The notes under the pieces: model-generated
Database searches by the model: none
What the model was told of the DNA's origin: nothing
Seen by the model: the letters and a program-made list of their open reading frames with translations, nothing else
Assembly: GCA_902594815.1 (NCBI GenBank)
Contig: CACJNL010000001.1
Span: forward strand, 6,188-70,187
Length of the DNA: 64,000 nucleotides
Reading direction: 5' to 3'
From: an uncultured Alphaproteobacteria bacterium
Lineage (GTDB): Bacteria > Pseudomonadota > Alphaproteobacteria > HIMB59 > GCA-002718135
Shown: positions 4,778 to 21,296 of the stretch, piece after piece
How the letters are laid out: each line of letters begins with the position of its first letter
Numbering within the stretch: position 1 is the first letter of the stretch
Position numbers and translations under genes: made by a program

Positions 4778-6016
4778 ATGTTGACTGTTCTACGCAACAC
4801 TTGGGCCCTTTTTTTCGGTTTTGGTATTATTTGTTTAGCTCATGGTCTGCAAGGAACGTTAATTGGTGTACGATCCGTTCTCGAAGGATTTAGTTTTTTT
4901 TTAACAGGATTGATTGTTGCGGGTTACTATGTAGGATATTTAACTGGATCCGTTGTTATTCCAATTTTTTTAAAACGGGTGGGACATATACGTGTGTTCG
5001 CTGCACTCGCTTCACTAGCATCGATAGCTATTCTCTTACATACCGTATTTCTGGATCCCTATTCTTGGTTTTTTATACGAATTTTAACAGGGACAAGCTT
5101 ATCTGGGATTTATATTATAATGGAGAGTTGGTTAAATGATAAATCAACAAACGAAACGCGTGGAAAGCTCTTATCAATCTATATGATCATCACTTTTGTT
5201 TTTGTTGGTCTTGGTCAACTCCTTCTTAATATCAGTGATCCTGCCAAAGTTGACTTATTTATTTTAGTTTCAATTCTTTTATCTTTTGCATTACTCCCTA
5301 TACTTCTTTCTAACACTGAACAACCTAACACAACTGATACAAAAAGTTTTTCTCTTGCTGAATTTTATGCAATCTCTCCTTTAGGATTTGTTGGTGCTCT
5401 ATTTACTGGTTTAGCACACAGTGCAGTATTTGGATACGGCGCAGTATATGCTACTGCTAAAGGATTGAGCGTCTTAGAAGTATCTATCTTTATGATTATC
5501 ATCACTTCCTTTGGTGCGTTATCTCAATGGCCTATTGGGTATCTATCAGATCGGATGGATAGAAGATTAATCTTAATTGGCGTTACTTTTATTGCTTCTG
5601 GATTATGTGTTTTGATTGTTGGATCCTCTTATATTTCACTAACTTTGTTTTTTATTCTTACTGCGATTTACTCCTGCATGTCTTTGCCAATGTATTCATT
5701 AGCAATTGCACACACAAATGACTTTCTTCAACAAAATGAGATTGTTGCTGCAAGTTCTGCATTTGCAAAACTCATGGGAATTGGTTCAATTCTAGGACCT
5801 TTGATGGTTTCGGCGATGATGAGCGTAACTGGCCCAAACGGCTATCATATTTATCTTCTTTTGATACATGGGTTACTTGGTTTATTTGGTCTATATCGTA
5901 TGACAAAAAGAGCAATTCCTGCTGATAGTGAGTCCCAATACGTTCCTCTGCCTCGCAACATAACACCTGCAGGTATGGAGCTCAACCCGGTCACTGAGCC
6001 AATCGAGGAACAATAA
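4778..6016 (+). CDS. MFS transporter
   Basis: 412 aa, about 12 TM segments, with an MFS-like loop motif (LSDRMDRRLIL). Confidence 0.8.
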   Translation: MLTVLRNTWALFFGFGIICLAHGLQGTLIGVRSVLEGFSFFLTGLIVAGYYVGYLTGSVVIPIFLKRVGHIRVFAALASLASIAILLHTVFLDPYSWFFIRILTGTSLSGIYIIMESWLNDKSTNETRGKLLSIYMIITFVFVGLGQLLLNISDPAKVDLFILVSILLSFALLPILLSNTEQPNTTDTKSFSLAEFYAISPLGFVGALFTGLAHSAVFGYGAVYATAKGLSVLEVSIFMIIITSFGALSQWPIGYLSDRMDRRLILIGVTFIASGLCVLIVGSSYISLTLFFILTAIYSCMSLPMYSLAIAHTNDFLQQNEIVAASSAFAKLMGIGSILGPLMVSAMMSVTGPNGYHIYLLLIHGLLGLFGLYRMTKRAIPADSESQYVPLPRNITPAGMELNPVTEPIEEQ

Positions 6017-7607: not shown

Positions 7608-9410
7608 ATGTTACGCAATCCACTTTTTTTAATAAGTATTTTTTTAATATTTTTTAGCACTTCTTCCTTTGCTGAAAAAACTCACGGAATTGCGATGCAC
7701 GGAAAACCAAAATATGAAGAGGGATTTACCCATCTAGACTATGTTAATCCTGATGCGCCTAAAGGTGGAACTGTTCGCTTTGGAGCATACGGCGCCTTCG
7801 ATAACTTAAACAGGGTTGCTTTTAAGGGATCAAAAGCAGCAGGTCTTGGTTACATAAATGATACATTAATGAGAAGAGTTTGGGATGAAGCATTCACCTT
7901 GTATGGTTTAATTGCAGAATATGCAGATATGCCTGATGATAGATCATCAATTACTTTTTATATTAATCCTAATGCAAAATTTCATGACGGTTCTCCAATT
8001 ACGAGAGAAGATGTCTTGTTTAGCTTAGAGACTTTTCAAACAAAAGGGACGCCAAATCAAAAAAAGACGTACGGTAAAGTTACATCGACTGAAATGATTG
8101 GTGAAAACGGCATTAAAATGAATTTTATAAATAATGAAGATAAAGAGCTTCCTCTTATTGTTGCAGGCTTCCTGCCGATTATCCCAAAAAAATATTATTC
8201 AACAATTGATGTTACAAAAACGTTTCTAGATATTCCCCTTGGAAGTGGCCCTTACAAAATTGAAAGCTTAGAGCCTGGACGTCAAATTAAATATCAACGT
8301 GTAAAAGATTATTGGGCAAAAGATTTGCCCGTTCATAAGGGTCAGTATAACTTTGATGAAATAGTATATGATTACTACAAGGACTCAAATGTACTTGTAG
8401 AAGCTTTCAAGGTAGGTGAGTATGATTATCGCCGTGAATATAATGCCAAAAGATGGTTTGCTGAATATGAGTTTGATGCAGTAGCAGAAGGTGATGTAAT
8501 TTTAAATGAGATGAAAAATGATAGACCTTCTGGAATGAATGCACTTGTCTTTAATTCACGAAAAGATATTTTCAGCAATCCACGAGTTCGCTACGCACTA
8601 TCGTATGCATATGATCATGAATGGATAAATAAAGTTTTATATAATAATGCGTATGTGAGAACAGATAGTTATTTTGATAATTCTCCTCTCGCATCAACTG
8701 GTTTACCTTCAAAAGAAGAATTAGTCTTATTAGAGCCTTTTAAGAACCAATTACCTCCAGAGATCTTTACTTCTTCATATGCACCTCCTGAAACAGACGG
8801 GAGTGGCAATCCAAGAGAGAATTTAAGAATTGCAAAAAAAATATTAGAGGAAGAAGGATGGGCTATTAACGATGGAAAATTAATGAAAGATGGAAAACAT
8901 TTTGAGTTTGAATTTTTAATCGTTAGTCCCTCCGTTGAAAAAATAGCTCTAGCTTTTCAAAAAACTTTAGAGGTACTAGGTATTACAATGAATGTGCGAA
9001 CGGTGGACTCATCACAATACCAAGGAAGATTATTAAATTATGATTTTGATATGATTAAAGCCTCTTGGAATGTCAGTCTAAGCCCAGGAAATGAACAACA
9101 ATTTTATTATGGGTCAGAGGTTGGTAAAAAAGAAGGTAGTAGAAATTATGCTGGTGTCGATAGTGAAGTTGTAGACTTTTTAATTGAACAATTAGTTGGC
9201 GCAAAAACGAGGGAAGAGTTAACGACCGCAATCCACGCTTTAGATAGAGTGCTTTTGTGGGGTCATTATGTGATACCTTTATATCATAGTAATACCGACC
9301 GCATTGCTTATTGGAATATGTTTGATTTTCCTGACACCATCCCTCTGTATGGAATTGTCATTGAGTCTTGGTGGATAGATCAAGAAAAAGAAAAAAAACT
9401 TAATCGTTAA
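7608..9410 (+). CDS. ABC transporter substrate-binding protein, family 5 (peptide/opine/YejA-like)
   Basis: 600 aa with a signal peptide. Size and sequence blocks are typical of SBP_bac_5 YejA-type proteins. No cognate permease or ATPase genes are nearby. Confidence 0.8.
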   Translation: MLRNPLFLISIFLIFFSTSSFAEKTHGIAMHGKPKYEEGFTHLDYVNPDAPKGGTVRFGAYGAFDNLNRVAFKGSKAAGLGYINDTLMRRVWDEAFTLYGLIAEYADMPDDRSSITFYINPNAKFHDGSPITREDVLFSLETFQTKGTPNQKKTYGKVTSTEMIGENGIKMNFINNEDKELPLIVAGFLPIIPKKYYSTIDVTKTFLDIPLGSGPYKIESLEPGRQIKYQRVKDYWAKDLPVHKGQYNFDEIVYDYYKDSNVLVEAFKVGEYDYRREYNAKRWFAEYEFDAVAEGDVILNEMKNDRPSGMNALVFNSRKDIFSNPRVRYALSYAYDHEWINKVLYNNAYVRTDSYFDNSPLASTGLPSKEELVLLEPFKNQLPPEIFTSSYAPPETDGSGNPRENLRIAKKILEEEGWAINDGKLMKDGKHFEFEFLIVSPSVEKIALAFQKTLEVLGITMNVRTVDSSQYQGRLLNYDFDMIKASWNVSLSPGNEQQFYYGSEVGKKEGSRNYAGVDSEVVDFLIEQLVGAKTREELTTAIHALDRVLLWGHYVIPLYHSNTDRIAYWNMFDFPDTIPLYGIVIESWWIDQEKEKKLNR

Positions 9411-12267: not shown

Positions 12268-13089
12268 ATGTCAATTTTTAATAACATATCAAGGAGAAAG
12301 TTTATTTATGGATCGACTTGTTTTTGTGCATCAAGCTTAATTTTACCATCCTGTACTGAGGTTGCGTTATCAGAACGACAACAGTTTAATATTTTATCAG
12401 ATGATTTTTTGTATTCAAAAACTTTTCCTGCATACAATAATTTCAAATCGCAGTCTAAACTGATCACTGGGACATCAGAATATAATGAAATAGTTGATAT
12501 TGGTTTTAGAATCCGCGATGCCATTAATGTGTATTACAATACAAAGGGACAAGAAGATCCAACATCTAATTTTCAGTGGGAATTTATTCTTGTTGATGAT
12601 GATCAAACCAAAAATGCTTGGTGTATGCCAGGTGGCAAAATTGCATTTTATTCTGGAATTCTTCCCATAGCTAAAAATGAAGATGGTATTGCATCCATCA
12701 TGGGACATGAAATAGCCCACGCAGTAGCAAGACACTCCGCAGAAAGAGCTAGTACGGCAATGCTAACTGATTTTGGAATAATGGCTTTAGAAAAATTTGT
12801 TTTAGGGCAACGACTGCCGCAGGCATCTGGATATGTTCGACAATTTGGTCTTGATTTGCCTTTTAATAGAAAACAAGAATCCGAAGCAGATTATTTAGGA
12901 ATAATTTTTTCAAGCTTAGCAGGTTATAATATTGAAGAGTCTTATAAAGTTTGGGAGCGAATGAAAGAAGAGACAGGTTCTGGTCCCACAGAATTTTGGA
13001 GTACCCATCCATCACCAGATAATAGAATTAAAAAATTAAAGGAATGGATACCGATTGTATCAAGACAGTATCCTGCTATAAGTGTTTAA
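12268..13089 (+). CDS. M48-family zinc metallopeptidase, lipoprotein
   Basis: Lipobox (LILPSC), HEIAHAVARH zinc motif and a downstream E(S)EADY motif. Confidence 0.8.
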   Translation: MSIFNNISRRKFIYGSTCFCASSLILPSCTEVALSERQQFNILSDDFLYSKTFPAYNNFKSQSKLITGTSEYNEIVDIGFRIRDAINVYYNTKGQEDPTSNFQWEFILVDDDQTKNAWCMPGGKIAFYSGILPIAKNEDGIASIMGHEIAHAVARHSAERASTAMLTDFGIMALEKFVLGQRLPQASGYVRQFGLDLPFNRKQESEADYLGIIFSSLAGYNIEESYKVWERMKEETGSGPTEFWSTHPSPDNRIKKLKEWIPIVSRQYPAISV

Positions 13090-14135
13090 TGCTAGCTGTT
13101 AGTATAAAAAACCTTAGTCACAAAATTAATAATAAACCTATTTTAAATAATGTTAATTTTGAATTAAAAAAAGATTCTATTGCGTGCATTCTTGGACCTT
13201 CCGGTAGTGGTAAAACAACATTATTAAAATTAATAGCAGGTTTAGATAAAGTCCAAAGTGGTAAAATCTTTATAAATGAACAAGAAGTAAGTTCTGCTAA
13301 TAAACATCTCGCAACTGAGAAAAGAAAAATTGGTTATCTGTTTCAGGACTACGCGCTCTTTCCTCACTTAACAGTCAAAGAAAATCTTAAATATCCTATT
13401 AATTTTAAAAACTCTATTTATACGATTAATGATATTATTGATGTTATTAAATTACCAAATTCTCTTGATAAGTATCCACATGAATTAAGTGGTGGAGAAC
13501 AACAACGAGTTGCTTTAGCAAGATCTATAATTTCTCATCCAGATTTATTATTATTAGACGAACCATTTTCTAGTCTTGATTTGAATTTAAGAGAGGAAAT
13601 ACGTGATGATACACTTCACTTACTCCAAAAATCTAATGTATCAACAATAATAGTTACGCATGATCCTTTTGAAGCAATGTTTATTTCAAATCAAATAAAT
13701 ATCATGGATGATAATGGTAGTATTATTCAATCTGGTTCTCCAGCAGATTTATACAATACTCCTAAGAATGAATATGTTACAAGATTTTTTGGAGAGACAA
13801 ATGTTTTTCATGGTAACGCAATTGACTCTATAGTTGCTACTCCTGTTGGCAACGTAAGAGTAGATCCTAAGTATAAGAACAAAAATGTTACAGTTCACAT
13901 AAGACCTCAAGGAATAAAATTAAGTGAACAACCAACGCCTGTTAACGGAATCAAGGGCACAGTTATGGCTTCAAAATTAATGGGTTCATTTAGTTTTATT
14001 CATTTATCAGTTTTAAATAATAAAAATGAAGTGGTGCATGTTCATAGCCACATGCCTCCTGAATTTAACCCTAAACAATCTTCTGCTGTAGAAATTGCAG
14101 TGGATGAAAAACATACTTTCGTTTTTGAAAGTTAA
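13089..14135 (+). CDS. fbpC: ABC transporter ATP-binding protein, Fe(3+)/polyamine (FbpC/PotA) type
   Basis: Start taken at ATG 13089, a TAATG overlap with the M48 stop. Walker A GPSGSGKTT, signature LSGGEQQRV, Walker B LLLLDEP, and a C-terminal TOBE-like domain. The 3' end overlaps the fbpB 3' end by 4 nt on the opposite strand. Confidence 0.75.
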   Translation: MLAVSIKNLSHKINNKPILNNVNFELKKDSIACILGPSGSGKTTLLKLIAGLDKVQSGKIFINEQEVSSANKHLATEKRKIGYLFQDYALFPHLTVKENLKYPINFKNSIYTINDIIDVIKLPNSLDKYPHELSGGEQQRVALARSIISHPDLLLLDEPFSSLDLNLREEIRDDTLHLLQKSNVSTIIVTHDPFEAMFISNQINIMDDNGSIIQSGSPADLYNTPKNEYVTRFFGETNVFHGNAIDSIVATPVGNVRVDPKYKNKNVTVHIRPQGIKLSEQPTPVNGIKGTVMASKLMGSFSFIHLSVLNNKNEVVHVHSHMPPEFNPKQSSAVEIAVDEKHTFVFES

Positions 14136-15739
14136 ATACTTTCTTTTCTCTGTGATACTCTTTGCAATGCAGAGTTTAAAAATATAATTGGACCTAACCC
14201 AACTACAACAATAATAAGAGCAGCAAAAGAAGACTCTTGTAAAAGTTCATCTGAAGCATACTGATAGACATAAGTTGCCAAAGTTTCAAAGTTGAAAGGA
14301 CGCAATAAAAGTGTGATGGGAAGTTCTTTTAATATATCAACAAAAACCAATATTCCCCCAATTAATATATTAGAAAATATCAAGGGCATAATTACAACTT
14401 TAACTCCTTTATAAAAACCAGCTCCCATAGTCAAAGAAGCATCCATAGCATTTGGATGAATTTTTAAAATTCCTGATCTAATAGATGCATTTCCTACAGC
14501 CAAAAATCTTACTATGTAAGCAAATATCAAAACAATAAAACCTCCTGCAACATAACTTAGATGAAGATGAAGGTATTTATTAATCCATCCTAGGAAAATC
14601 ACCATTCCTACTGCTAATATTGTTCCTGGCAGGGCATATCCACAAGACGCAAGAAAAATTAGGGATTTTTGAAAATTATTTGATTTATATTGAGAGATTA
14701 TAATTAAAAATATTGAAGCCAGCATAACAAAAAAAGCACCTGTAAGAGCCAAAGTAATACTAAAAAAAGAAGTGTAGAATATTTGTGTGAAATCAATAAT
14801 CGAAAAACCACTAAAAATAAAATTTAATAACACAGATACAGGAATAACAAATCCTATAACTATAGGTATTATACAAACAAAAAAACAAATTATTTTCTTA
14901 ACATTCGATGTAGTTTTAGCCTCTATCATATTTTGACCACTACTTTTTTCATGAAATCTTTGATTTCTTCTAGCAAGATATTCTATAGTTATTAAGACAA
15001 CTACAAATATAAATAAAACAGATGAAATTTGTGAAGCTCCTGACAAACTATTCATGCCAAGCCACACGTTAAAAACACCTAAAGTTAATGTTTCAAGCGC
15101 AAAATATTCAACAGTACCAAAATCAGATACAGTTTCCATTAACACAAGAGCCAAACCAGCTATGATACCAGGTCGGGCAAGTGGTAAAGCAACACTAAAA
15201 AAACTACTTCTTCCATATATTAAGCTTGTTTGAAAAAAAGATATAGGCACGGTTAGAAATGATGCTCTGGTAGTCATATAAATATATGGATATAAAACAA
15301 ATGACATTACAAATATTGCTCCTTCCATAGATCTTATTTCAGGAAACCAATATTCTTCTGCATTTTTAAAATTAAAAAACTCTCTTATAATTTTTTGAAC
15401 CGGTCCTGCATACTCTAAAAAATCTGTATAGGTGTATGCAATTATGTAGGCTGGAACTGCTGCTGGTAATAATAAAGCCCATTCAAAAAAATTCTTCCCA
15501 AAAAAATTATACCTGGTAACAACCCATGCGGTAGATATACCTAAAAAAGAGCTTAACAAACCAACACCTATCATTAATATAATTGTATTTGAAATATATC
15601 TTGGCAATACAGTCGAGAATAAATGAGGCCACAATGAAGTGTCACCTAAAAAAGCAGAATAAAAAATTGCAAATACTGGCGCAATAATAATTAATGCAAC
15701 TAAAGTAGCAAATAAAGATGAATTATTCCAATTTAACAA
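14132..15739 (-). CDS. fbpB: iron(III) ABC transporter permease (two fused permease domains)
   Basis: 535 aa, about 12 TM helices, duplicated binding-protein-dependent permease domain. Follows fbpA. Confidence 0.8.
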   Translation of the reverse strand: MLNWNNSSLFATLVALIIIAPVFAIFYSAFLGDTSLWPHLFSTVLPRYISNTIILMIGVGLLSSFLGISTAWVVTRYNFFGKNFFEWALLLPAAVPAYIIAYTYTDFLEYAGPVQKIIREFFNFKNAEEYWFPEIRSMEGAIFVMSFVLYPYIYMTTRASFLTVPISFFQTSLIYGRSSFFSVALPLARPGIIAGLALVLMETVSDFGTVEYFALETLTLGVFNVWLGMNSLSGASQISSVLFIFVVVLITIEYLARRNQRFHEKSSGQNMIEAKTTSNVKKIICFFVCIIPIVIGFVIPVSVLLNFIFSGFSIIDFTQIFYTSFFSITLALTGAFFVMLASIFLIIISQYKSNNFQKSLIFLASCGYALPGTILAVGMVIFLGWINKYLHLHLSYVAGGFIVLIFAYIVRFLAVGNASIRSGILKIHPNAMDASLTMGAGFYKGVKVVIMPLIFSNILIGGILVFVDILKELPITLLLRPFNFETLATYVYQYASDELLQESSFAALIIVVVGLGPIIFLNSALQRVSQRKESI

Positions 15740-15757
15740 AACAGTTGATGTTATAGA

Positions 15758-16777
15758 TTACCATCCAACTCTATCAATTATTTTTTGAGCTTCAGGAGCA
15801 AGTTCAGCAATTTTTATAATTGGTAATTTATCTTCCCTGAAGTTTCCCCAGGAACTAAGCTCTTTACTTGGATTTACGATGGGATTAACAGGATACTCAA
15901 AATTTATTTCACCATATAATTGTTGAGATTCTTTTGTAGTTAAAAATTCTAACAACATTATTGCTTCTTTTTTGTTTTTTGAGTGTAGGGCAACACCTCC
16001 ACCCGATATGTTAATATGTGCCCCGCGGTCACCTTCTTTTTGATTTGGAAAAATCAGCTTTACTTTTTCAGCCCATTTTCTTTGCTCAGGATCTTCAGAA
16101 AATTTTAATTTTCCATAATAATAATTATTAATAATTGCTATATTGCATTCACCTTCATAAATTGACTTAATTTGCGCTCTGTCATTTCCTTGAGGTCTTC
16201 GCGCAAAATTATTTACAAGACCTTTTGCCCAAGCTTCCGCGTTTGCTTCTCCGTATTCCGCTAAAACAGATGCCATGATCCCTCTATTATAAACATGACT
16301 TCCAGGCCTTGAACAAATTTGGCCTTTCCATTTCGAGTCGGCTAAGTCTTCTAATCTAGTTATTTCACCATCCTTAATTTTTTCTTTATTTACCGCAATA
16401 ACCCTTGCTCTTTTAGAGAGAGCAAACCAATTGTTTTCAGGGCTTCTTAAATGTGATGGGACATTTTCTATTAATTTTTTTGACTCTATAGAGGCTAAAA
16501 GATTCAAATCTGAGTAAATATATAATCTTCCTATATCGACAGTTAAAATAACGTCAGCTGGACTGTTTTCTCCTTCTGATTGTAATCTTTGTGCAAGACC
16601 TTTTTTTGAATAGATAACGTTTGTTTTAATTCCAGTTTCATTCGTAAACAATTCTAAAAAAGGGTTAATTAAGAAAGGTTGTCTATGCGAATATATATTA
16701 ATTTCTTTAGCAAAAAGATTTAGTGAAAAACATGTAATAAAGATTATTGATAAAATATTAATAGTATTTTTTTTCAT
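15758..16777 (-). CDS. fbpA: Fe(3+) ABC transporter periplasmic binding protein
   Basis: 339 aa with a signal peptide. FbpA/SfuA-like sequence and size. Confidence 0.8.
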   Translation of the reverse strand: MKKNTINILSIIFITCFSLNLFAKEINIYSHRQPFLINPFLELFTNETGIKTNVIYSKKGLAQRLQSEGENSPADVILTVDIGRLYIYSDLNLLASIESKKLIENVPSHLRSPENNWFALSKRARVIAVNKEKIKDGEITRLEDLADSKWKGQICSRPGSHVYNRGIMASVLAEYGEANAEAWAKGLVNNFARRPQGNDRAQIKSIYEGECNIAIINNYYYGKLKFSEDPEQRKWAEKVKLIFPNQKEGDRGAHINISGGGVALHSKNKKEAIMLLEFLTTKESQQLYGEINFEYPVNPIVNPSKELSSWGNFREDKLPIIKIAELAPEAQKIIDRVGW

Positions 16778-17777
16778 TAGAATAACTCCTCTTAAAAAGA
16801 TTAAAATAAAATTTTTTTCGTAGCAAATTTAAATTTTTAATAAAATAATTCTTTATTTCAAAAAAAGGATTTAAATATAGTGTTTTTAAATCATGACTTT
16901 CGTCTTTTTGATTTTTTTCAATTCCAAGATTGAGTGTTTCAAAATCAACAGAATGATGTAATGAACCAAAAAGCCAATCCCAAATTGCTAATGCAGCGCC
17001 AAAATTTTTATCATGATGTTCCTTAGCTATAGAGTGATGCAGTTGATGTTGGGCTGGTGAAATAAAAATATATTCTACCCACTTCCAATATTGAATACCT
17101 ATATGAGAATGCCGTAAGTTTGAACCCAATACATTAAATATAAATACAAAAATATTTACTCCCAATATTGTAAACAAGCTAACTGTATTTCCAAATAAAA
17201 AAATAAATGTTGAAATACTAATAGCTTGTGTAACTGAACTTCTTAAAGAAAAAATAATTCCTTCTAACGGATGTGTTCTAAACACTGTCATTGGGGTAAG
17301 AACGGTTGCTGAATGATGGACTTTATGCAGTGACCAAAGAATTGGCCAACGATGCATAAATCTATGAATGAAATACTTACTAAAATCATCAATGGTAAAT
17401 TGAAAAGTCGTAAAAGAAATTACCACAATAATAGGTAAAGTATTTGAAAACATTCCAACACTAAGCCAATCTATTGAGTGAAAATAAAAGTATAAGGCTG
17501 TGGCTATTGTTAAGTGTGTTATCAATATTGGTGAAACTATCATCATTATTAATTGATTGATGAAAAAAACTTTATAATCTGATTTTGCTGATTTAGAAAA
17601 AAATATATTCCAATTAAAAATTTTTTTTAAAGCGGTTTTTAAGGTAAATTTTTTATTTAAGATAAACCAACCTAAGGCAATGAATATTGATATAACAATA
17701 TATGCAATAAAAACTCTTTTTTTTGGATCAATAAATTGACTACCAATTTTAAAAAAATAGTCTGACAGAATATCCAT
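16758..17777 (-). CDS. fatty-acid hydroxylase / sterol desaturase superfamily membrane di-iron oxygenase
   Basis: 339 aa, polytopic, with three His boxes (HRFMHR, HKVHHS, HQLHHS plus HHDKNFG). The 3' end overlaps the fbpA start by 20 nt. Confidence 0.8.
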   Translation of the reverse strand: MDILSDYFFKIGSQFIDPKKRVFIAYIVISIFIALGWFILNKKFTLKTALKKIFNWNIFFSKSAKSDYKVFFINQLIMMIVSPILITHLTIATALYFYFHSIDWLSVGMFSNTLPIIVVISFTTFQFTIDDFSKYFIHRFMHRWPILWSLHKVHHSATVLTPMTVFRTHPLEGIIFSLRSSVTQAISISTFIFLFGNTVSLFTILGVNIFVFIFNVLGSNLRHSHIGIQYWKWVEYIFISPAQHQLHHSIAKEHHDKNFGAALAIWDWLFGSLHHSVDFETLNLGIEKNQKDESHDLKTLYLNPFFEIKNYFIKNLNLLRKKFYFNLFKRSYSNEKKYY

Positions 17778-17788
17778 ATAACTTCATA

Positions 17789-17813
17789 GTGTGGCTTTTT
17801 TAAAAAGCCACAC
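17789..17813 (-). other. intercistronic perfect palindrome/hairpin GTGTGGCTTTTT(T)AAAAAGCCACAC
   Basis: Read directly. 12-bp arms (7 GC-rich plus 5 A/T) in the 47-nt gap between the 458-aa gene and the hydroxylase gene. No U-tract follows on the minus strand. Confidence 0.4.
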
Positions 17814-17824
17814 AAAATTTAATA

Positions 17825-19201
17825 TTAGTCATTTTCTGCAGAGTCTGAACTGCCTAGTGAGCTAGCAAGATCTTCCATCGCAGATAGTTGATCATTAGCT
17901 TTAGCAGTGACGCCAAATTCATCGATCATAAGTTTTTGAATTTTAAGCATATGTAACTTAAACTCACCCCATTCCTGAGCTTGATCTTTGATGAAATTAC
18001 CATTTGAATCAACTCCAACAACTTGTGAAGCATTTAGTAGAACTGGTCCAAAGCCCATCATTCTATTCATTTTAACAGCTGCTTCTCCTAGATTTTCTGG
18101 TCCACACTGAAGTGCTAAAGCAAAGCCTTTAAGCTCTCCCCAATGTTTTGCATATTTTCTAAACGTATCAGTCGTATCACCATTTGCTTCGACGATTGTT
18201 TCAAGCGCTACTATATCTTTGTAGGTTGAACCTGCATACTTAAATACAGACTCAGCAATTACTTTTTGCCAATTATCTCTAATAGTATCTCTTGCTGCTA
18301 ACATAGCAGTTCTTTCATCAAAGTTAAGGTTACGACCACCAGCATCTCTAATAACTTCTCTTCCATCTATAAATGCTTGATTAACTGTAGCAAGGTAGTT
18401 TGTCTTTCCACCTTTGTCATAACTTGATGCGTAGTAAGCATGAGCATATAACATCTCAGAATACAAATCTACAACACCATCTCCATTATAATCTGCTGAA
18501 GATAAATCTTTCATCTTGGCAACGTTATAGTTTTCTTCAGCTGATAATGTTAAAGAATGTGCTGGCGCACCCCAATATCCAAAAGCTTCATCCCAACTAT
18601 GTTCTTTACCAGTATAATAAGATCCTTCTTTGTAAGGTTTATTATTTGGTTTTTCCCCAACTTTCATTTTTTTTCCAAGATAGTTATTTACTGCTTGGTT
18701 GTAGAACACAGCACCCATTGCAAATTTAGAAATCAATTGTGTGTAATCAAATCCAGTATTTGGATCAAAACCACCCTCAACTTCACTAGCTTTTTGCATC
18801 ATGTGTTCAATAGCTTCAGGACCGGTTAGTCCTCCCCAGCCAGGAATTGCGCCTTTATACATTTTGCCAGACAAGTTACCACTACCTATTTCAGCAACCA
18901 TGGTTTGCATAACAGGGAAACCATCCTTAGATTTTGGGGCAATGATTTCTAGACCATCTTCACCATTGTAATAAGCCATCATTTTATCGAGATCACCTGT
19001 TTTAACAAGTTTTTTCAAACTATCATGCAGAACTTGTCTCGCCATTTGACCAGTATATTTTACAGAATTTGTCTTATCGCCATCATAACCTTTAAGTGTA
19101 ATTGGATAAGGTCCATATATTTGATGACCATCAGCCAATAATGATTTTGAAAAACTAATTGCTATTATTATTGAAGCAACAATTGTAATTATTTTTTTCA
19201 T
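17825..19201 (-). CDS. secreted protein of unknown function (first gene of the iron operon)
   Basis: 458 aa with a clean signal peptide (…FSKSLLA/DGHQ) and SD GAGGAG 6 nt upstream. The EHSWDEAFGYWGAP segment only faintly recalls the imelysin/EfeO-type H..E..LWG motif (also considered: DUF4856). No confident family call. Confidence 0.8.
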   Translation of the reverse strand: MKKIITIVASIIIAISFSKSLLADGHQIYGPYPITLKGYDGDKTNSVKYTGQMARQVLHDSLKKLVKTGDLDKMMAYYNGEDGLEIIAPKSKDGFPVMQTMVAEIGSGNLSGKMYKGAIPGWGGLTGPEAIEHMMQKASEVEGGFDPNTGFDYTQLISKFAMGAVFYNQAVNNYLGKKMKVGEKPNNKPYKEGSYYTGKEHSWDEAFGYWGAPAHSLTLSAEENYNVAKMKDLSSADYNGDGVVDLYSEMLYAHAYYASSYDKGGKTNYLATVNQAFIDGREVIRDAGGRNLNFDERTAMLAARDTIRDNWQKVIAESVFKYAGSTYKDIVALETIVEANGDTTDTFRKYAKHWGELKGFALALQCGPENLGEAAVKMNRMMGFGPVLLNASQVVGVDSNGNFIKDQAQEWGEFKLHMLKIQKLMIDEFGVTAKANDQLSAMEDLASSLGSSDSAEND

Positions 19202-19227
19202 AAACTCCTCGTAATAAATTTTTAATT

Positions 19228-19273
19228 GCGGGAGCAGAATAACGGAATTGCTGATCTTGTTTATTGCTCCCGC
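19228..19273 (-). promoter_or_regulatory. GC-rich stem-loop in the 5' leader of the iron operon
   Basis: Perfect 9-bp stem GCGGGAGCA/TGCTCCCGC enclosing 28 nt. It ends 17 nt upstream of the SD, in an otherwise AT-rich leader. Confidence 0.4.
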
Positions 19274-19370
19274 GTCCTCTTATTGAGAATCTAACAACTT
19301 TTTTATTTATAAAATTTCAAAGTTTAATTATAAAAAAATTCCCTAGGTATTTTCTAAAGAATTTAATATT

Positions 19371-19388
19371 TTTAGAATTATTCTAATT
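19371..19388. promoter_or_regulatory. ICE (Irr) / Fur-family type operator, copy 1: TTTAGAATTATTCTAATT
   Basis: 7-1-7 palindrome TTAGAAT-T-ATTCTAA. It fits the Irr iron control element TTTAGAA-N3-TTCTAAA at 13/14 positions. An extra half-site (TTCTAAA, 19352-19358) overlaps a possible -35 for TATAAT (minus strand, 19332-19327). Identical to copy 2. Confidence 0.6.
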
Positions 19389-19393
19389 AAATA

Positions 19394-19762
19394 TTAATTA
19401 GAAAAATACTTCTTTTGATCTAAATACCATTTAGTCAGCATCAATGAATAGTTTTCAGACAAGCAATAAGACTTTGATCTTCTATCTTTTTTTGATGATT
19501 TTTTAATGAAAAAACCTTTGCTAACAGCATAATTAAGTGTCGAGTAAATTGTAGATCTACAGCCGAGCTTTGACGGTATTTTTTTACATAACATCTCATA
19601 TGACATACATTGATTATTGAAAGTTGAAGAAGCAATTTCAAGACTAATCAAACGTGTAAGTGCGGATGAATAAAAAAAGTTATAACAGGGATCTATATCT
19701 TTTTTAGTATAAAAATCTTTTTTTACTAAGTCTACAACGTTTTCTAAACCTAACATAGTCAA
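19394..19762 (-). CDS. small winged-helix (MarR-like) transcriptional regulator, Cys-rich
   Basis: 122 aa from TTG 19762, or 120 aa from ATG 19756. wHTH pattern ...MSYEMLCKKIPSKLGCRSTIYSTLNYAVSKGFFIKKSSKKDRRSKSYCLSE... Five cysteines. Flanked on both sides by the 18-nt box. Confidence 0.6.
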   Translation of the reverse strand: MTMLGLENVVDLVKKDFYTKKDIDPCYNFFYSSALTRLISLEIASSTFNNQCMSYEMLCKKIPSKLGCRSTIYSTLNYAVSKGFFIKKSSKKDRRSKSYCLSENYSLMLTKWYLDQKKYFSN

Positions 19763-19912: not shown

Positions 19913-19930
19913 TTTAGAATTATTCTAATT
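19913..19930. promoter_or_regulatory. ICE (Irr) / Fur-family type operator, copy 2: TTTAGAATTATTCTAATT
   Basis: Exact 18-nt repeat of 19371-19388. About 150 nt upstream of the regulator start and abutting the hupE stop codon. Followed by another TTTAGAA half-site (19929-19935). Confidence 0.6.
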
Positions 19931-20532
19931 TAGAATAAAAAAGATATACCAAATAGAGCGCATCCAGCTCCAGCAACTTTTAAAACAATTGATGAAAATT
20001 TAGTCTTAATAGCTAAACTCCCTATTCCCACACCAAAAAGATGTAATATTGCTGTTCCTGATGCAAAGCCAAGTGCAAATAAAATTGGGTTAACTGCCCA
20101 TGGCATCTCCATGCCGTGCGCTAATCCATGACACATCCCAAAAATACAAATGAAAATCATTATAATATTAGTGGCAATTTTTTTTTCTATCGCAATTGCT
20201 AAGCCTAATAATATGACAGAAAAGACTATACCGTATTCAACAACTATAAAGGCAGATTCTTCTAAATCAAAAAAGAAAACCTCAATCAACATGCCAATGG
20301 TACCGCCGATAATCATCATTAAGACAAAGGTTGCAGGAATGGTCCAAATTGCTCTTCCTCCAATTTGGGCACTTACAATACCAACACTAACCATTGCTAA
20401 AAAATGATCTATCCCTAATACTGGATGAGAAAGACCATCATAAAAACCTACCATCCCTGTAAAAGTATGTGCATGGGCTCCAGAGGTATAAAAAACTAGA
20501 GATAAAAACAGTAAAATTAAATTAGCTTTCAT
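19930..20532 (-). CDS. hupE: HupE/UreJ-family metal (Ni/Co-type) transporter
   Basis: 200 aa. Signal peptide ending GAHA/HTFTG, then the GFYDGLSHPVLGIDHFLAMV signature and about 6 TM helices. Confidence 0.85.
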   Translation of the reverse strand: MKANLILLFLSLVFYTSGAHAHTFTGMVGFYDGLSHPVLGIDHFLAMVSVGIVSAQIGGRAIWTIPATFVLMMIIGGTIGMLIEVFFFDLEESAFIVVEYGIVFSVILLGLAIAIEKKIATNIIMIFICIFGMCHGLAHGMEMPWAVNPILFALGFASGTAILHLFGVGIGSLAIKTKFSSIVLKVAGAGCALFGISFLF

Positions 20533-21230
20533 GCAAATCCTTTCTGTTTTCTTGAAAATAATTTTTTAATAATAAAATAAATTAGAAATATTATAACTAC
20601 TAAAGCTATATGCGGAATATAAGCACGAATATCAAATTTTTGCCAATGCAATATATCCATAGCAGGCCCAATATATAAAAGGATAGGAGCCCATGTTAAA
20701 GTTTGCTCCCACAAATTAGATCCAAAAAATTCAGCTTCTCCTACTGCAAGAGAATAATGTCCTGAATTATTTTCATTAAAAATTTGAATTAAATAAGAAC
20801 CTGCATTCAAATTAAAACTTCTCTTAAAACCAGTATCTTCATTAACTTCGGCTCCTATTTCCGGTCCTTTCCAATACCAATCTCTAGCATACGGTTCATA
20901 CCAGGCTTCCCATTCAAAATTTTGGCCATCTGCAAAAAATTTTAAAATTTTATTATTTTTTTCATTAATTGAATATACAGCAATCGATAACCATAAATGG
21001 TCATCATCAACTTTAGGACTTAAAATTCCAGTATAAAATAAAAATTCTTCTTCACTATTAATTAAATAATAGTGTGGTTCACCGTTAAGCTTGCCATAAT
21101 ATGCTTTAGATATCTCTGGGTCTATAACTTCATGAGGATTATCAACAGAAGGTGAGTAATTAATTAACTTTGGCTGATGGGCAAATAAATTAGAACTAAA
21201 TAATAAGAAAATAATTACAATTAATTTCAT
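20529..21230 (-). CDS. secreted, C-terminally membrane-anchored protein of unknown function (predicted mature N-terminal His)
   Basis: 233 aa. Signal peptide …SSNLFA/HQPKL, a soluble domain of about 165 aa, then two C-terminal hydrophobic helices. 4-nt overlap with hupE. Confidence 0.75.
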   Translation of the reverse strand: MKLIVIIFLLFSSNLFAHQPKLINYSPSVDNPHEVIDPEISKAYYGKLNGEPHYYLINSEEEFLFYTGILSPKVDDDHLWLSIAVYSINEKNNKILKFFADGQNFEWEAWYEPYARDWYWKGPEIGAEVNEDTGFKRSFNLNAGSYLIQIFNENNSGHYSLAVGEAEFFGSNLWEQTLTWAPILLYIGPAMDILHWQKFDIRAYIPHIALVVIIFLIYFIIKKLFSRKQKGFA

Positions 21231-21269: not shown

Positions 21270-21296
21270 ATAAAAATGGGGCCACATTGGGCCCCT
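21270..21296 (-). terminator. rho-independent terminator of hsp20
   Basis: Minus strand: GGGGCC-CAATGT-GGCCCC followed by ATTTTTATTTTATT, about 35 nt after the hsp20 stop. Confidence 0.75.

Follow-up and report, generated by a model that had tools for sequence, protein, structure and literature searches.

Why should a gene set for ferric-iron uptake begin with two genes that encode no part of the transporter? The question is raised by a 64,000-nucleotide stretch of DNA from an uncultured alphaproteobacterium of the HIMB59 lineage (contig CACJNL010000001.1, positions 6,188 to 70,187; G+C content approximately 32%), which is referred to here as the window. On its minus strand, four open reading frames (ORFs) follow one another from 19201 to 14132. 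These encode a 458-aa protein of the Pfam family DUF4856 (19201-17825), a 339-aa membrane protein of the FA_hydroxylase family (17777-16758), the 339-aa FbpA, a periplasmic Fe3+-binding protein of the FbpA/FutA class (16777-15758), and the 535-aa FbpB, assigned with Pfam and NCBIfam as a double-domain ABC permease (15739-14132). According to the ORF list they are joined by a 47-nt gap, an overlap of 20 nt between the hydroxylase gene and fbpA, and an 18-nt gap; the ORF coordinates and the three junction sizes given in an earlier note on this DNA proved exact to the base on recomputation. To our knowledge, the FbpABC-type systems described so far encode three transporter parts only. The earlier note had described the four genes as an operon and had proposed that the two extra ones belong to the iron-starvation response.

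Conservation of the gene order and the hydroxylase-FbpA fusion

The gene order was examined in other organisms using a pattern scan with a DUF4856 alignment, carried out on one genome per species. At least 574 stretches encoding the protein were obtained, the best 80 loci were kept, and the window proteins were run against these by tblastn; 75 of the loci had enough unmasked downstream sequence to be evaluated. The hydroxylase gene was located directly 3' of the DUF4856 gene, on the same strand, in 74 of these 75 species-level genomes, and in the single exception a Fur-family gene stood in its place. Carriers were found among the Alphaproteobacteria (HIMB59-type, Pelagibacter-labelled, Rhodobacteraceae, SAR116, Rhodospirillales, Nisaea and Hyphomicrobiales) and the Gammaproteobacteria (Pseudothioglobus, Neptuniibacter, Endobugula, Cellvibrionaceae and Pseudomonadales), and also in SAR324, in Marinimicrobia and in one metagenome-assembled genome labelled Acidimicrobiaceae. 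FbpA followed directly after the hydroxylase in 59 genomes, usually with a stop/start overlap of 4-23 nt, while in nine genomes no FbpA was found within 7 kb of the pair. The near-constant adjacency, together with the occurrence of the pair by itself in these nine genomes, indicates that the DUF4856 protein and the hydroxylase are the core pair and that FbpA is their usual third member. The adjacency of the first three genes, which the earlier note had suggested looking for in relatives, is therefore not peculiar to the window. In many marine lineages the genes for a periplasmic DUF4856 protein, a membrane di-iron protein and FbpA have been kept together in evolution as a fixed module, usually with those for FbpB and FbpC after them.

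In 12 of the genomes the hydroxylase and FbpA were encoded by one in-frame ORF of approximately 670 codons, with no stops and no masked bases in the fusion. Two types of FbpA were involved, one with approximately 62-65% identity to the window FbpA in alphaproteobacterial loci, and another with 38-44% identity in gammaproteobacterial loci. Independent gene calls gave the same result, as at least 120 public protein clusters among the matches listed were fusions, all of them full length (approximately 670 aa) and all carrying PF04116 and solute-binding protein (SBP) domains. They include proteins of Terasakiella sp. A23, Nisaea acidiphila and Defluviicoccus, annotated merely as "extracellular solute-binding protein". 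The linkers of the fusions keep a positive stretch, a hydrophobic segment and an AxA-like site, which suggests that the FbpA signal peptide persists in the fusion as a signal anchor. Such a linker would place the C-terminal, His-box part of the hydroxylase on the cytoplasmic side of the membrane and FbpA in the periplasm. The fusion would further imply that the cell needs both proteins jointly, in a 1:1 ratio and at one place in the membrane. Judged by these overlaps and fusions, the hydroxylase gene is translationally coupled to fbpA where it is not fused to it. The synteny, the overlaps and the in-frame fusions all bear out the single unit that had been proposed, and a functional link between the two extra genes and FbpA-dependent iron uptake is, in our view, very probable.

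The proteins of the module

When the window SBP was compared with proteins of solved structure, it matched Fe-binding proteins over its full length (6g7n, E 8e-84; 2pt1, 8e-83; 1q35, 2e-80; 1y9u, 2e-76). Seven solved Fe-binding proteins were matched at E 1e-72 to 1e-84, in comparison with just 1e-5 for a phosphonate binder. Alignment to 1q35, the FbpA of Mannheimia, set YSHRQPFLI against YSYRQPYLI, VYN against SYN and NNYYYGK against NSYYYGK. These residues include the iron-ligand tyrosines and the N-terminal anion/iron motif of the Mannheimia protein. By these matches the third protein is identified as a Mannheimia-type FbpA/FutA-class Fe3+-binding protein, and two BPD_transp_1 stretches were found in the 535-aa permease, so that both names given to these genes in the earlier note, FbpA and FbpB, were retained.

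The 458-aa protein had been described as belonging to no family that could be named. It fits Pfam DUF4856 (PF16148) with 44.4 bits against a cutoff of 22.3, in an alignment that covers residues 145-219 only. The same family was matched by 49 of the 49 diverse full-length homologues that were aligned, and 820 representative clusters match it at E <= 1e-3; some marine metagenome protein clusters of the 458-aa protein are very large (400-1100 member sequences). The nearest genome match, with 98% identity over the 458-aa protein, was the single-cell genome AG-447-L18, labelled as an uncultured member of the Alphaproteobacteria, and further relatives carry MarineAlpha5 or Pelagibacter-type labels, which is the HIMB59/AEGEAN-169 kind of organism. 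On inspection the protein begins with a Sec-type signal peptide (MKKIITIVASIIIAISFSKSLLA, with DG following the cleavage point), in agreement with the clean signal peptide noted before, and there is no lipobox; it is therefore predicted to be periplasmic. The most conserved motif of the family, EHxWDEAFGYxG in the 49 homologues, corresponds to EHSWDEAFGYWG (residues 200-211). Eight residues of this motif are invariant in the homologues (E200, H201, W203, D204, E205, G208, Y209 and G211), as are G51, Q52, R55, Y174, D237, E249, R281 and E356 outside it. An EF-hand-like loop is present at DYNGDGVVDLYSE. EF-hand loops were the sole PDB matches of the DUF4856 family profile, and weak EF-hand_5 matches were obtained in 9 of the 49 members, which suggests that this segment behaves as an EF-hand-like calcium loop. 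The AF2 model of the protein is mainly helical, with a pLDDT of 92 and a pTM of 0.91.

More distant DUF4856 proteins (27-31% identity), which are lipoproteins of Gammaproteobacteria, Myxococcota and Bradymonadales, head clusters of another composition. In these the DUF4856 gene is accompanied by an imelysin gene (PF09375), an HTTM gene, an optional DCC1-like gene and a gene for a TonB-dependent receptor (L085, 7001-14052; L086, 7001-13637; L087, 7001-13429). In a further locus (L088, 6001-10761) DUF4856, TonB receptor and TonB genes lie beside ferritin and BFD genes. The DUF4856 protein is found at the outer membrane where the receptor is TonB-dependent, and in the periplasm where it is FbpA. 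It is thus repeatedly the product of the first gene and located in the same compartment as the primary receptor, as would be expected of a protein for substrate capture or hand-off.

The second protein is polytopic and matched FA_hydroxylase (PF04116) at 78.7 bits against a gathering score of 31 (E 7e-22). Its His boxes are HRFMH, HKVHH and HQLHH, with H169, H223 and H254 in addition, and eleven His residues (H138, H142, H151, H154, H155, H169, H223, H244, H247, H248 and H254) are invariant in 76 orthologues. The three-box assignment to the hydroxylase/desaturase superfamily made earlier therefore stands, and with all of its di-iron box residues preserved the protein looks catalytically competent. 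A close relative of known function was not found among the families and structures searched. The best NCBIfam match was the ornithine-lipid hydroxylase OlsE, at 46.8 bits against a cutoff of 475; there was no sequence match in the PDB, and a Foldseek search with the model gave nothing significant, Scs7p (4zr1) being returned at E 5.

Regulatory sites and flanking genes

A 17-bp palindrome, ATTAGAATAATTCTAAA, is located at 19387-19371, just upstream of the predicted -35 element of the DUF4856 gene. It fits the ICE consensus TTTAGAA-N3-TTCTAAA at 13 of the 14 specified positions, in agreement with the ICE-type leader box of the earlier note, and can also be read as a 7-1-7 inverted repeat; it is a candidate operator of a Fur-family (Irr/Fur) regulator. 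A second copy, absent from that note, lies at 19929-19913, after the hupE stop and upstream of a 122-aa ORF; the 64 kb contain no third exact copy. A look-alike with two mismatches at 2435-2449 is within a coding gene and was taken as a chance occurrence. In most HIMB59-type relatives an ICE-like box is found 114-220 nt upstream of the DUF4856 gene (approximately 400 nt in L006). Two boxes flank the 122-aa gene in L004, L008, L009 and L011, as in the window, and in relatives that lack this gene one box stands between the hupE and DUF4856 genes. The box therefore does not depend on the 122-aa gene, which looks like an insertion that duplicated the operator.

In other lineages a Fur box (up to four mismatches, within 250 nt upstream) preceded the DUF4856 gene in 27 of 68 genomes. 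Among the remaining intergenic upstream regions in these loci the figure was 23 of 225 (odds ratio 5.8, p 1e-7), and among random windows it was 0.5%. Upstream of the DUF4856 gene in Rhodobacteraceae there are TGA-N9-TCA palindromes of the Iron-Rhodo/RirA type; the definitions of the iron-regulator motifs were taken from the literature (PMC1698941). The occurrence of three types of iron operator before the same gene in different lineages argues strongly for iron control. A Fur-family gene was present within 7 kb in 17 loci, and immediately upstream of the DUF4856 gene in the Pelagibacteraceae-type loci L024, L026, L027 and L028; a bacterioferritin gene was nearby in eight loci. Taken together, the operator boxes and these neighbours point to membership of the two extra genes in the iron response, which the earlier note had put forward; none of the outcomes that the note had named as refuting its proposal was encountered. 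In P. ubique, Fur-alpha has been named as the regulator of the fbp operon, and ICE has been attributed to no more than one or two genes, which are not transport genes (PMC1698941); HIMB59 was reported by Hogle et al. to be without apparent Fur boxes (PMC4771312). The ICE-like box may explain this reported want of Fur boxes in HIMB59.

Between the palindrome and the DUF4856 gene the minus strand carries, in order, a promoter-like site, a small and a long hairpin, and a GAGGAG ribosome-binding site. The predicted sigma-70-like promoter (19356-19327, minus strand) consists of TAGAAA, an 18-nt spacer and TATAAT, with 10 of 12 matches in a consensus scan only. The structured 5' leader that follows (19289-19228, minus strand) begins with the small hairpin UUCUC-AAUAA-GAGGA (19289-19275) and continues with the long one (19273-19228), which has a GC base stem formed by GCGGGAGCA and UGCUCCCGC. 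Compensatory changes were found in 8 of the 11 base-stem pairs among eight sequences, representing approximately three or four independent lineages. The covariation score was reached by none of 500 shuffles, and slid controls were far lower. These values were obtained from a register-fixed alignment with the loops removed and with explicit pair counts; the long hairpin was not recovered by RNAalifold from an unedited MAFFT alignment, owing to its variable loops. The GC hairpin reported earlier is therefore real by the evidence of its relatives, and in an Rfam scan of the operon and leader no family matched the leader.

Straight after the DUF4856 stop, in the 47-nt gap, there is a further stem-loop, a perfect 25-nt palindrome (17813-17789, minus strand; GTGTGGCTTTTTAAAAAAGCCACAC), which is the palindrome that had been seen in this gap. 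An Rfam match to Histone3 here (17788-17835, plus strand; 20.3 bits against a gathering score of 34) was below threshold and was ascribed to the chance resemblance of a simple hairpin. When the 70 nt that follow the DUF4856 stop were folded, z was below -2 in 60 of 74 genomes, with a median of -3.7; for control segments taken from within the hydroxylase gene the figure was 4 of 74. Stem sequences vary from lineage to lineage, and T-runs follow some of the stems. The element is likely a partial terminator or a stabiliser of the mRNA 3' end, and its position suggests that expression of the first gene exceeds that of the others, either because transcription partly terminates there or because the 3' end is protected. 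Of the operon described in the earlier note, the linkage of the genes is upheld by synteny, and the conserved stem-loop suggests graded expression in place of uniform co-transcription.

The gene for the remaining transporter part, an fbpC-like ATPase with ABC_tran and TOBE_2 domains, is on the plus strand (13044-14135), convergent with fbpB and overlapping it by 4 nt, and it keeps this place in close relatives. Its start overlaps the end of an M48 peptidase gene on the same strand by 46 nt (window 12268-14135); the ATPase gene may thus be co-transcribed with the peptidase gene and not with the rest of the importer. Other arrangements of the transporter genes were seen elsewhere. At 65% identity, the clade of L003 has a Flavodoxin_2/FMN_red gene (5371-5943; NAD(P)H-dependent FMN reductase-like) between fbpB and fbpC, and the same insertion place is used in a 14-kb ENA contig; a role for its product as electron donor or ferric reductase of the module is possible. 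In Neptuniibacter caesariensis MED92 (L056) the hydroxylase gene is seemingly absent, but the sequence right after the DUF4856 gene is masked with N (8376-8839); FbpABC is divergent there, 2.7 kb upstream. The Pelagibacteraceae-type trio of DUF4856, hydroxylase and SBP genes in L028 (3422-6893) has no permease alongside, and the Fur-family gene directly upstream of DUF4856 in that locus is beside a divergent ZnuABC-type (ABC-3/ZnuA) metal transporter.

Upstream of the module, the 122-aa ORF (19394-19762, minus strand) contains a winged-helix-like motif, STIYSTLNYAVSKGFF, with a weak match to Pfam HTH_36 (E 0.005). Homologues with 37-89% identity were found in L002, L004, L005, L008, L009 and L011, and a homologue search of the relative loci did not find it in L001, L006, L007, L010, L012 or L053. 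It is possibly a small DNA-binding protein and an optional part of the locus. The idea that it is a diverged Fur was rejected, as the match amounted to merely 16 residues resembling a recognition helix and no relative was found among solved structures. The next unit (19930-21230, minus strand) comprises a gene for an exported protein of 233 aa, which has a membrane anchor at its C-terminus and no Pfam match, overlapping by 4 nt the gene for a metal permease of the HupE/UreJ family. This pair is kept directly upstream of the iron cluster in the HIMB59-type loci L001, L002, L004, L005, L006, L009 and L053; no box was found upstream of it, and a role as a second unit of metal uptake is possible. 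Between an HSP20 gene and the 233-aa gene, at 21278-21295, there is a perfect GC hairpin, GGGGCC-N6-GGCCCC, which is terminator-like on both strands.

Proposed function and comparison with known systems

The reading that we propose is of an extended ferric-iron ABC uptake system under an iron-responsive operator of the Fur-family type. When iron is scarce, the operator would be relieved or activated and the leader-bearing mRNA made, with the stem-loop making DUF4856 the most abundant product. The DUF4856 protein, stabilised by its Ca2+ loop, would capture iron or weakly complexed iron in the periplasm through the cluster of invariant Glu, His, Asp and Tyr residues, and would hand Fe3+ to FbpA, in parallel with its lipoprotein relatives that precede TonB-dependent receptors. 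The hydroxylase, present 1:1 with FbpA, would be an O2- and electron-dependent membrane oxidoreductase on the cytoplasmic face, acting on a lipophilic membrane substrate; it would support the hand-off by redox or ligand chemistry, or organise or gate FbpA at the permease. FbpBC would then import the iron. With this mechanism included, we give the reading an even chance of being correct. The specific division of labour, with capture and hand-off by DUF4856 and support by the hydroxylase, is a tentative assignment that may well be wrong. More doubtful still is the suggestion that DUF4856 and the FbpA-coupled di-iron oxygenase together form a siderophore- and TonB-independent machine in which redox or ligand chemistry, driven from the membrane, strips iron from organic complexes in the periplasm and loads it onto FbpA. 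In a bolder variant, the membrane enzymes that accompany DUF4856 (FA_hydroxylase and the VKGC-like HTTM) would modify DUF4856 or a lipid cofactor to produce metal-binding groups.

A number of observations weigh against this proposal. Sequence, profile and PDB searches detected no homology of DUF4856 to any protein of known metal-binding function, and the known chemistry of the FA_hydroxylase family is lipid hydroxylation or desaturation. The fusion puts the His boxes on the cytoplasmic side, which makes direct chemistry on periplasmic iron hard to picture, and its linkers look cleavable by signal peptidase, so that fusion may enforce co-expression and not a stable complex. The nine genomes in which the pair has no FbpA nearby belong here as well, as does the lack of significance of the top structural match of the 458-aa model, which is considered below. 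As for regulation, no Fur-family regulator gene was found in the 64-kb window, the box lies upstream of the predicted -35 in a position from which it could either repress or activate, fbpC is convergent with no iron box of its own, and DUF4856 could be transcribed apart from the genes that follow it because of the stem-loop, which in some taxa has T-runs.

Among the alternatives, the simplest is that the arrangement is a lineage-specific accident of four independent neighbouring genes. A strong hairpin does part gene 1 from gene 2, and yet synteny in 74 of 75 genomes across phyla, together with the gene overlaps and fusions, refutes this explanation, the probability of which we regard as negligible. 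It is also very improbable that the ABC transporter is of the phosphonate, thiamine or polyamine type and the cluster unrelated to iron. This would follow the best NCBIfam names of the three ABC parts, all of them 2-aminoethylphosphonate components; the scores behind these names are all far under their cutoffs, however, and the 2-aminoethylphosphonate reading was rejected on the structure matches of FbpA, which matches seven solved Fe-binding proteins and keeps the YS[YH]RQP and YYYG motifs of Mannheimia FbpA; iron-regulator boxes and Fur and bacterioferritin genes recur nearby. A third possibility arises from the resemblance to imelysin/EfeO-type proteins that the earlier note saw in the 458-aa protein. 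DUF4856 would then be a very divergent member of that group, in an EfeUOB-like machine with a di-iron membrane enzyme in place of the EfeB peroxidase. In imelysin systems, too, a helical protein of the periplasm and a redox enzyme occur together and are controlled by Fur (PMC3143127), the conserved His/acid motif of DUF4856 sits on a helix, and the top match of the model in a Foldseek search of the whole PDB was the imelysin-like 3n8u. This match was non-significant (E 0.22, TM 0.16-0.19), and Pfam and profile-profile comparison did not uphold the resemblance. There were zero matches to PF09375 (Peptidase_M75) in the 49 DUF4856 members at E <= 10, PDB sequence and profile searches with DUF4856 found no imelysin, and hhalign gave the DUF4856 profile a probability of 0.1% with E. 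coli EfeO, and of 0.4% with three imelysins encoded next to distant DUF4856 genes. The motif is K-E-H-S-W-D-E (EHxWDE, or HxxDE) and not GxHxxE, with no Gly two residues ahead of the His. No gene for EfeB/DyP or a di-haem peroxidase was found near the window locus or among the recurrent neighbours in 83 loci. The co-occurrence of DUF4856 with a separate, true imelysin gene in other lineages indicates that it does not replace imelysin. Membership was rejected on the Pfam, PDB and hhalign results, with the Foldseek match kept as a weak structural lead, and we consider the corresponding machine improbable.

The two other alternatives concern the hydroxylase. As an ordinary membrane-lipid hydroxylase of the OlsE or Scs7 kind, it would remodel lipids under iron stress, and its linkage to fbpA would be mere co-regulation. 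The PF04116 match with a complete set of His boxes, OlsE as the best NCBIfam match, a predicted cytoplasmic-side active site suited to a lipid substrate, and the pairs without FbpA nearby are all in keeping with this. We nevertheless think it unlikely, given an OlsE score that is a tenth of the cutoff, the in-frame fusion to FbpA, seen in genomes with two different FbpA types and in at least 120 protein clusters, the overlapping stop and start codons elsewhere, and a near-obligate adjacency to DUF4856 across phyla that is unusual for a general lipid enzyme. Alternatively, the hydroxylase-like protein could be an iron sensor or acceptor facing the cytoplasm, with a di-iron site that reports or receives imported iron and gates FbpA/FbpBC. 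Its 1:1 coupling or fusion with FbpA would suit such a role, as would a His-rich site on the side where FbpBC releases iron, as the linker topology suggests, and control of the module by iron boxes. The family offers no precedent for it, however, an enzyme would keep the same full catalytic His set, and the pair sits away from FbpBC in some genomes; we give a sensor or acceptor only a slim chance.

The coupling of the pair to FbpA-dependent uptake is of interest because of where iron matters. Iron limits heterotrophic and phototrophic production over large areas of the ocean, and over 99% of the iron in solution is bound to organic ligands. We know of no settled account of how abundant bacteria without siderophore and TonB systems obtain it. 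The module is attached to the only high-affinity iron importer of these bacteria, and one of its two proteins without an assigned function is covalently joined to FbpA in many organisms. A siderophore- and TonB-free machine, if it exists, would explain how streamlined oligotrophs (HIMB59/AEGEAN-169, some SAR11, SAR116 and Pseudothioglobus) gain access to ocean iron that is bound to ligands. A direct test of the question is possible in cultured carriers, which include Neptuniibacter caesariensis MED92, Nisaea, Terasakiella, Roseobacter sp. SK209-2-6, Thalassobius and Pseudothioglobus. New candidate biomarkers of bacterial iron stress are a further gain, and both Pfam DUF4856 and a bacterial subfamily of FA_hydroxylase are placed in a functional setting for the first time. 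The statement in the earlier note that the combination is not described as a system was in accordance with the open-access full-text literature, in which no description of DUF4856 or of a DUF4856-hydroxylase-FbpA cluster was found. Nothing relevant was found there on a hydroxylase/sterol desaturase with Fur, FbpA or iron limitation, or on HTTM with imelysin, and the cluster is not mentioned in the SAR11, HIMB59 and Roseobacter iron literature that was examined.

Several known systems resemble the locus in part. EfeUOB/EfeM and the IrpA/ICMP operons likewise combine a secreted, mainly helical accessory protein, a redox enzyme and an iron transporter under Fur control. Their accessory proteins have no sequence or profile similarity to DUF4856, however, and they use a DyP or di-haem peroxidase and an Ftr1-type permease, whereas the module has a membrane di-iron His-box protein and an ABC importer. 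FtrABCD, P19-cFtr1 and FetMP are alike in concept, with a periplasmic iron-binding protein and a membrane redox component beside a permease, but the families are unrelated, the permeases being of the Ftr1 type and the partners cupredoxins or polyferredoxins. Scs7p, sterol desaturases, OlsE and CrtZ share with the hydroxylase the His boxes HX3-4H and HX2-3HH (twice), a polytopic structure and a di-iron site that probably faces the cytoplasm. None of them is a close characterised relative, and the window protein differs in a unique N-terminal membrane extension of approximately 120 aa, in its obligate linkage to DUF4856 and FbpA, and in the SBP fusion. The palindrome resembles the Irr/ICE and Fur operators of Alphaproteobacteria, both in the fit of ATTAGAATAATTCTAAA to the ICE consensus and in its inverted-repeat form.

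Two further comparisons concern the DUF4856 gene and the importer. The DUF4856-imelysin-HTTM-TonB clusters also have DUF4856 first, followed by a polytopic, enzyme-like membrane protein and a primary iron receptor, with ferritin and BFD genes nearby; they differ in that DUF4856 is a lipoprotein, the membrane protein is a VKGC-like HTTM and not an FA_hydroxylase, the receptor is TonB-dependent and in the outer membrane, and imelysin is present. FbpABC, SfuABC, HitABC and FutABC share the FbpA/FutA-class Fe3+-binding protein, the double-domain permease, the TOBE ATPase and iron-responsive operators. The Fur/iron-induced sfuABC set of P. ubique is listed with no DUF4856 or hydroxylase genes (PMC2864753). 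In the locus described here, unlike these systems, fbpA comes after two extra conserved genes, and the second of these, which encodes the hydroxylase, overlaps it or is fused with it. What appears to be new is a conserved front end of two uncharacterised proteins on an importer of the FbpABC kind.

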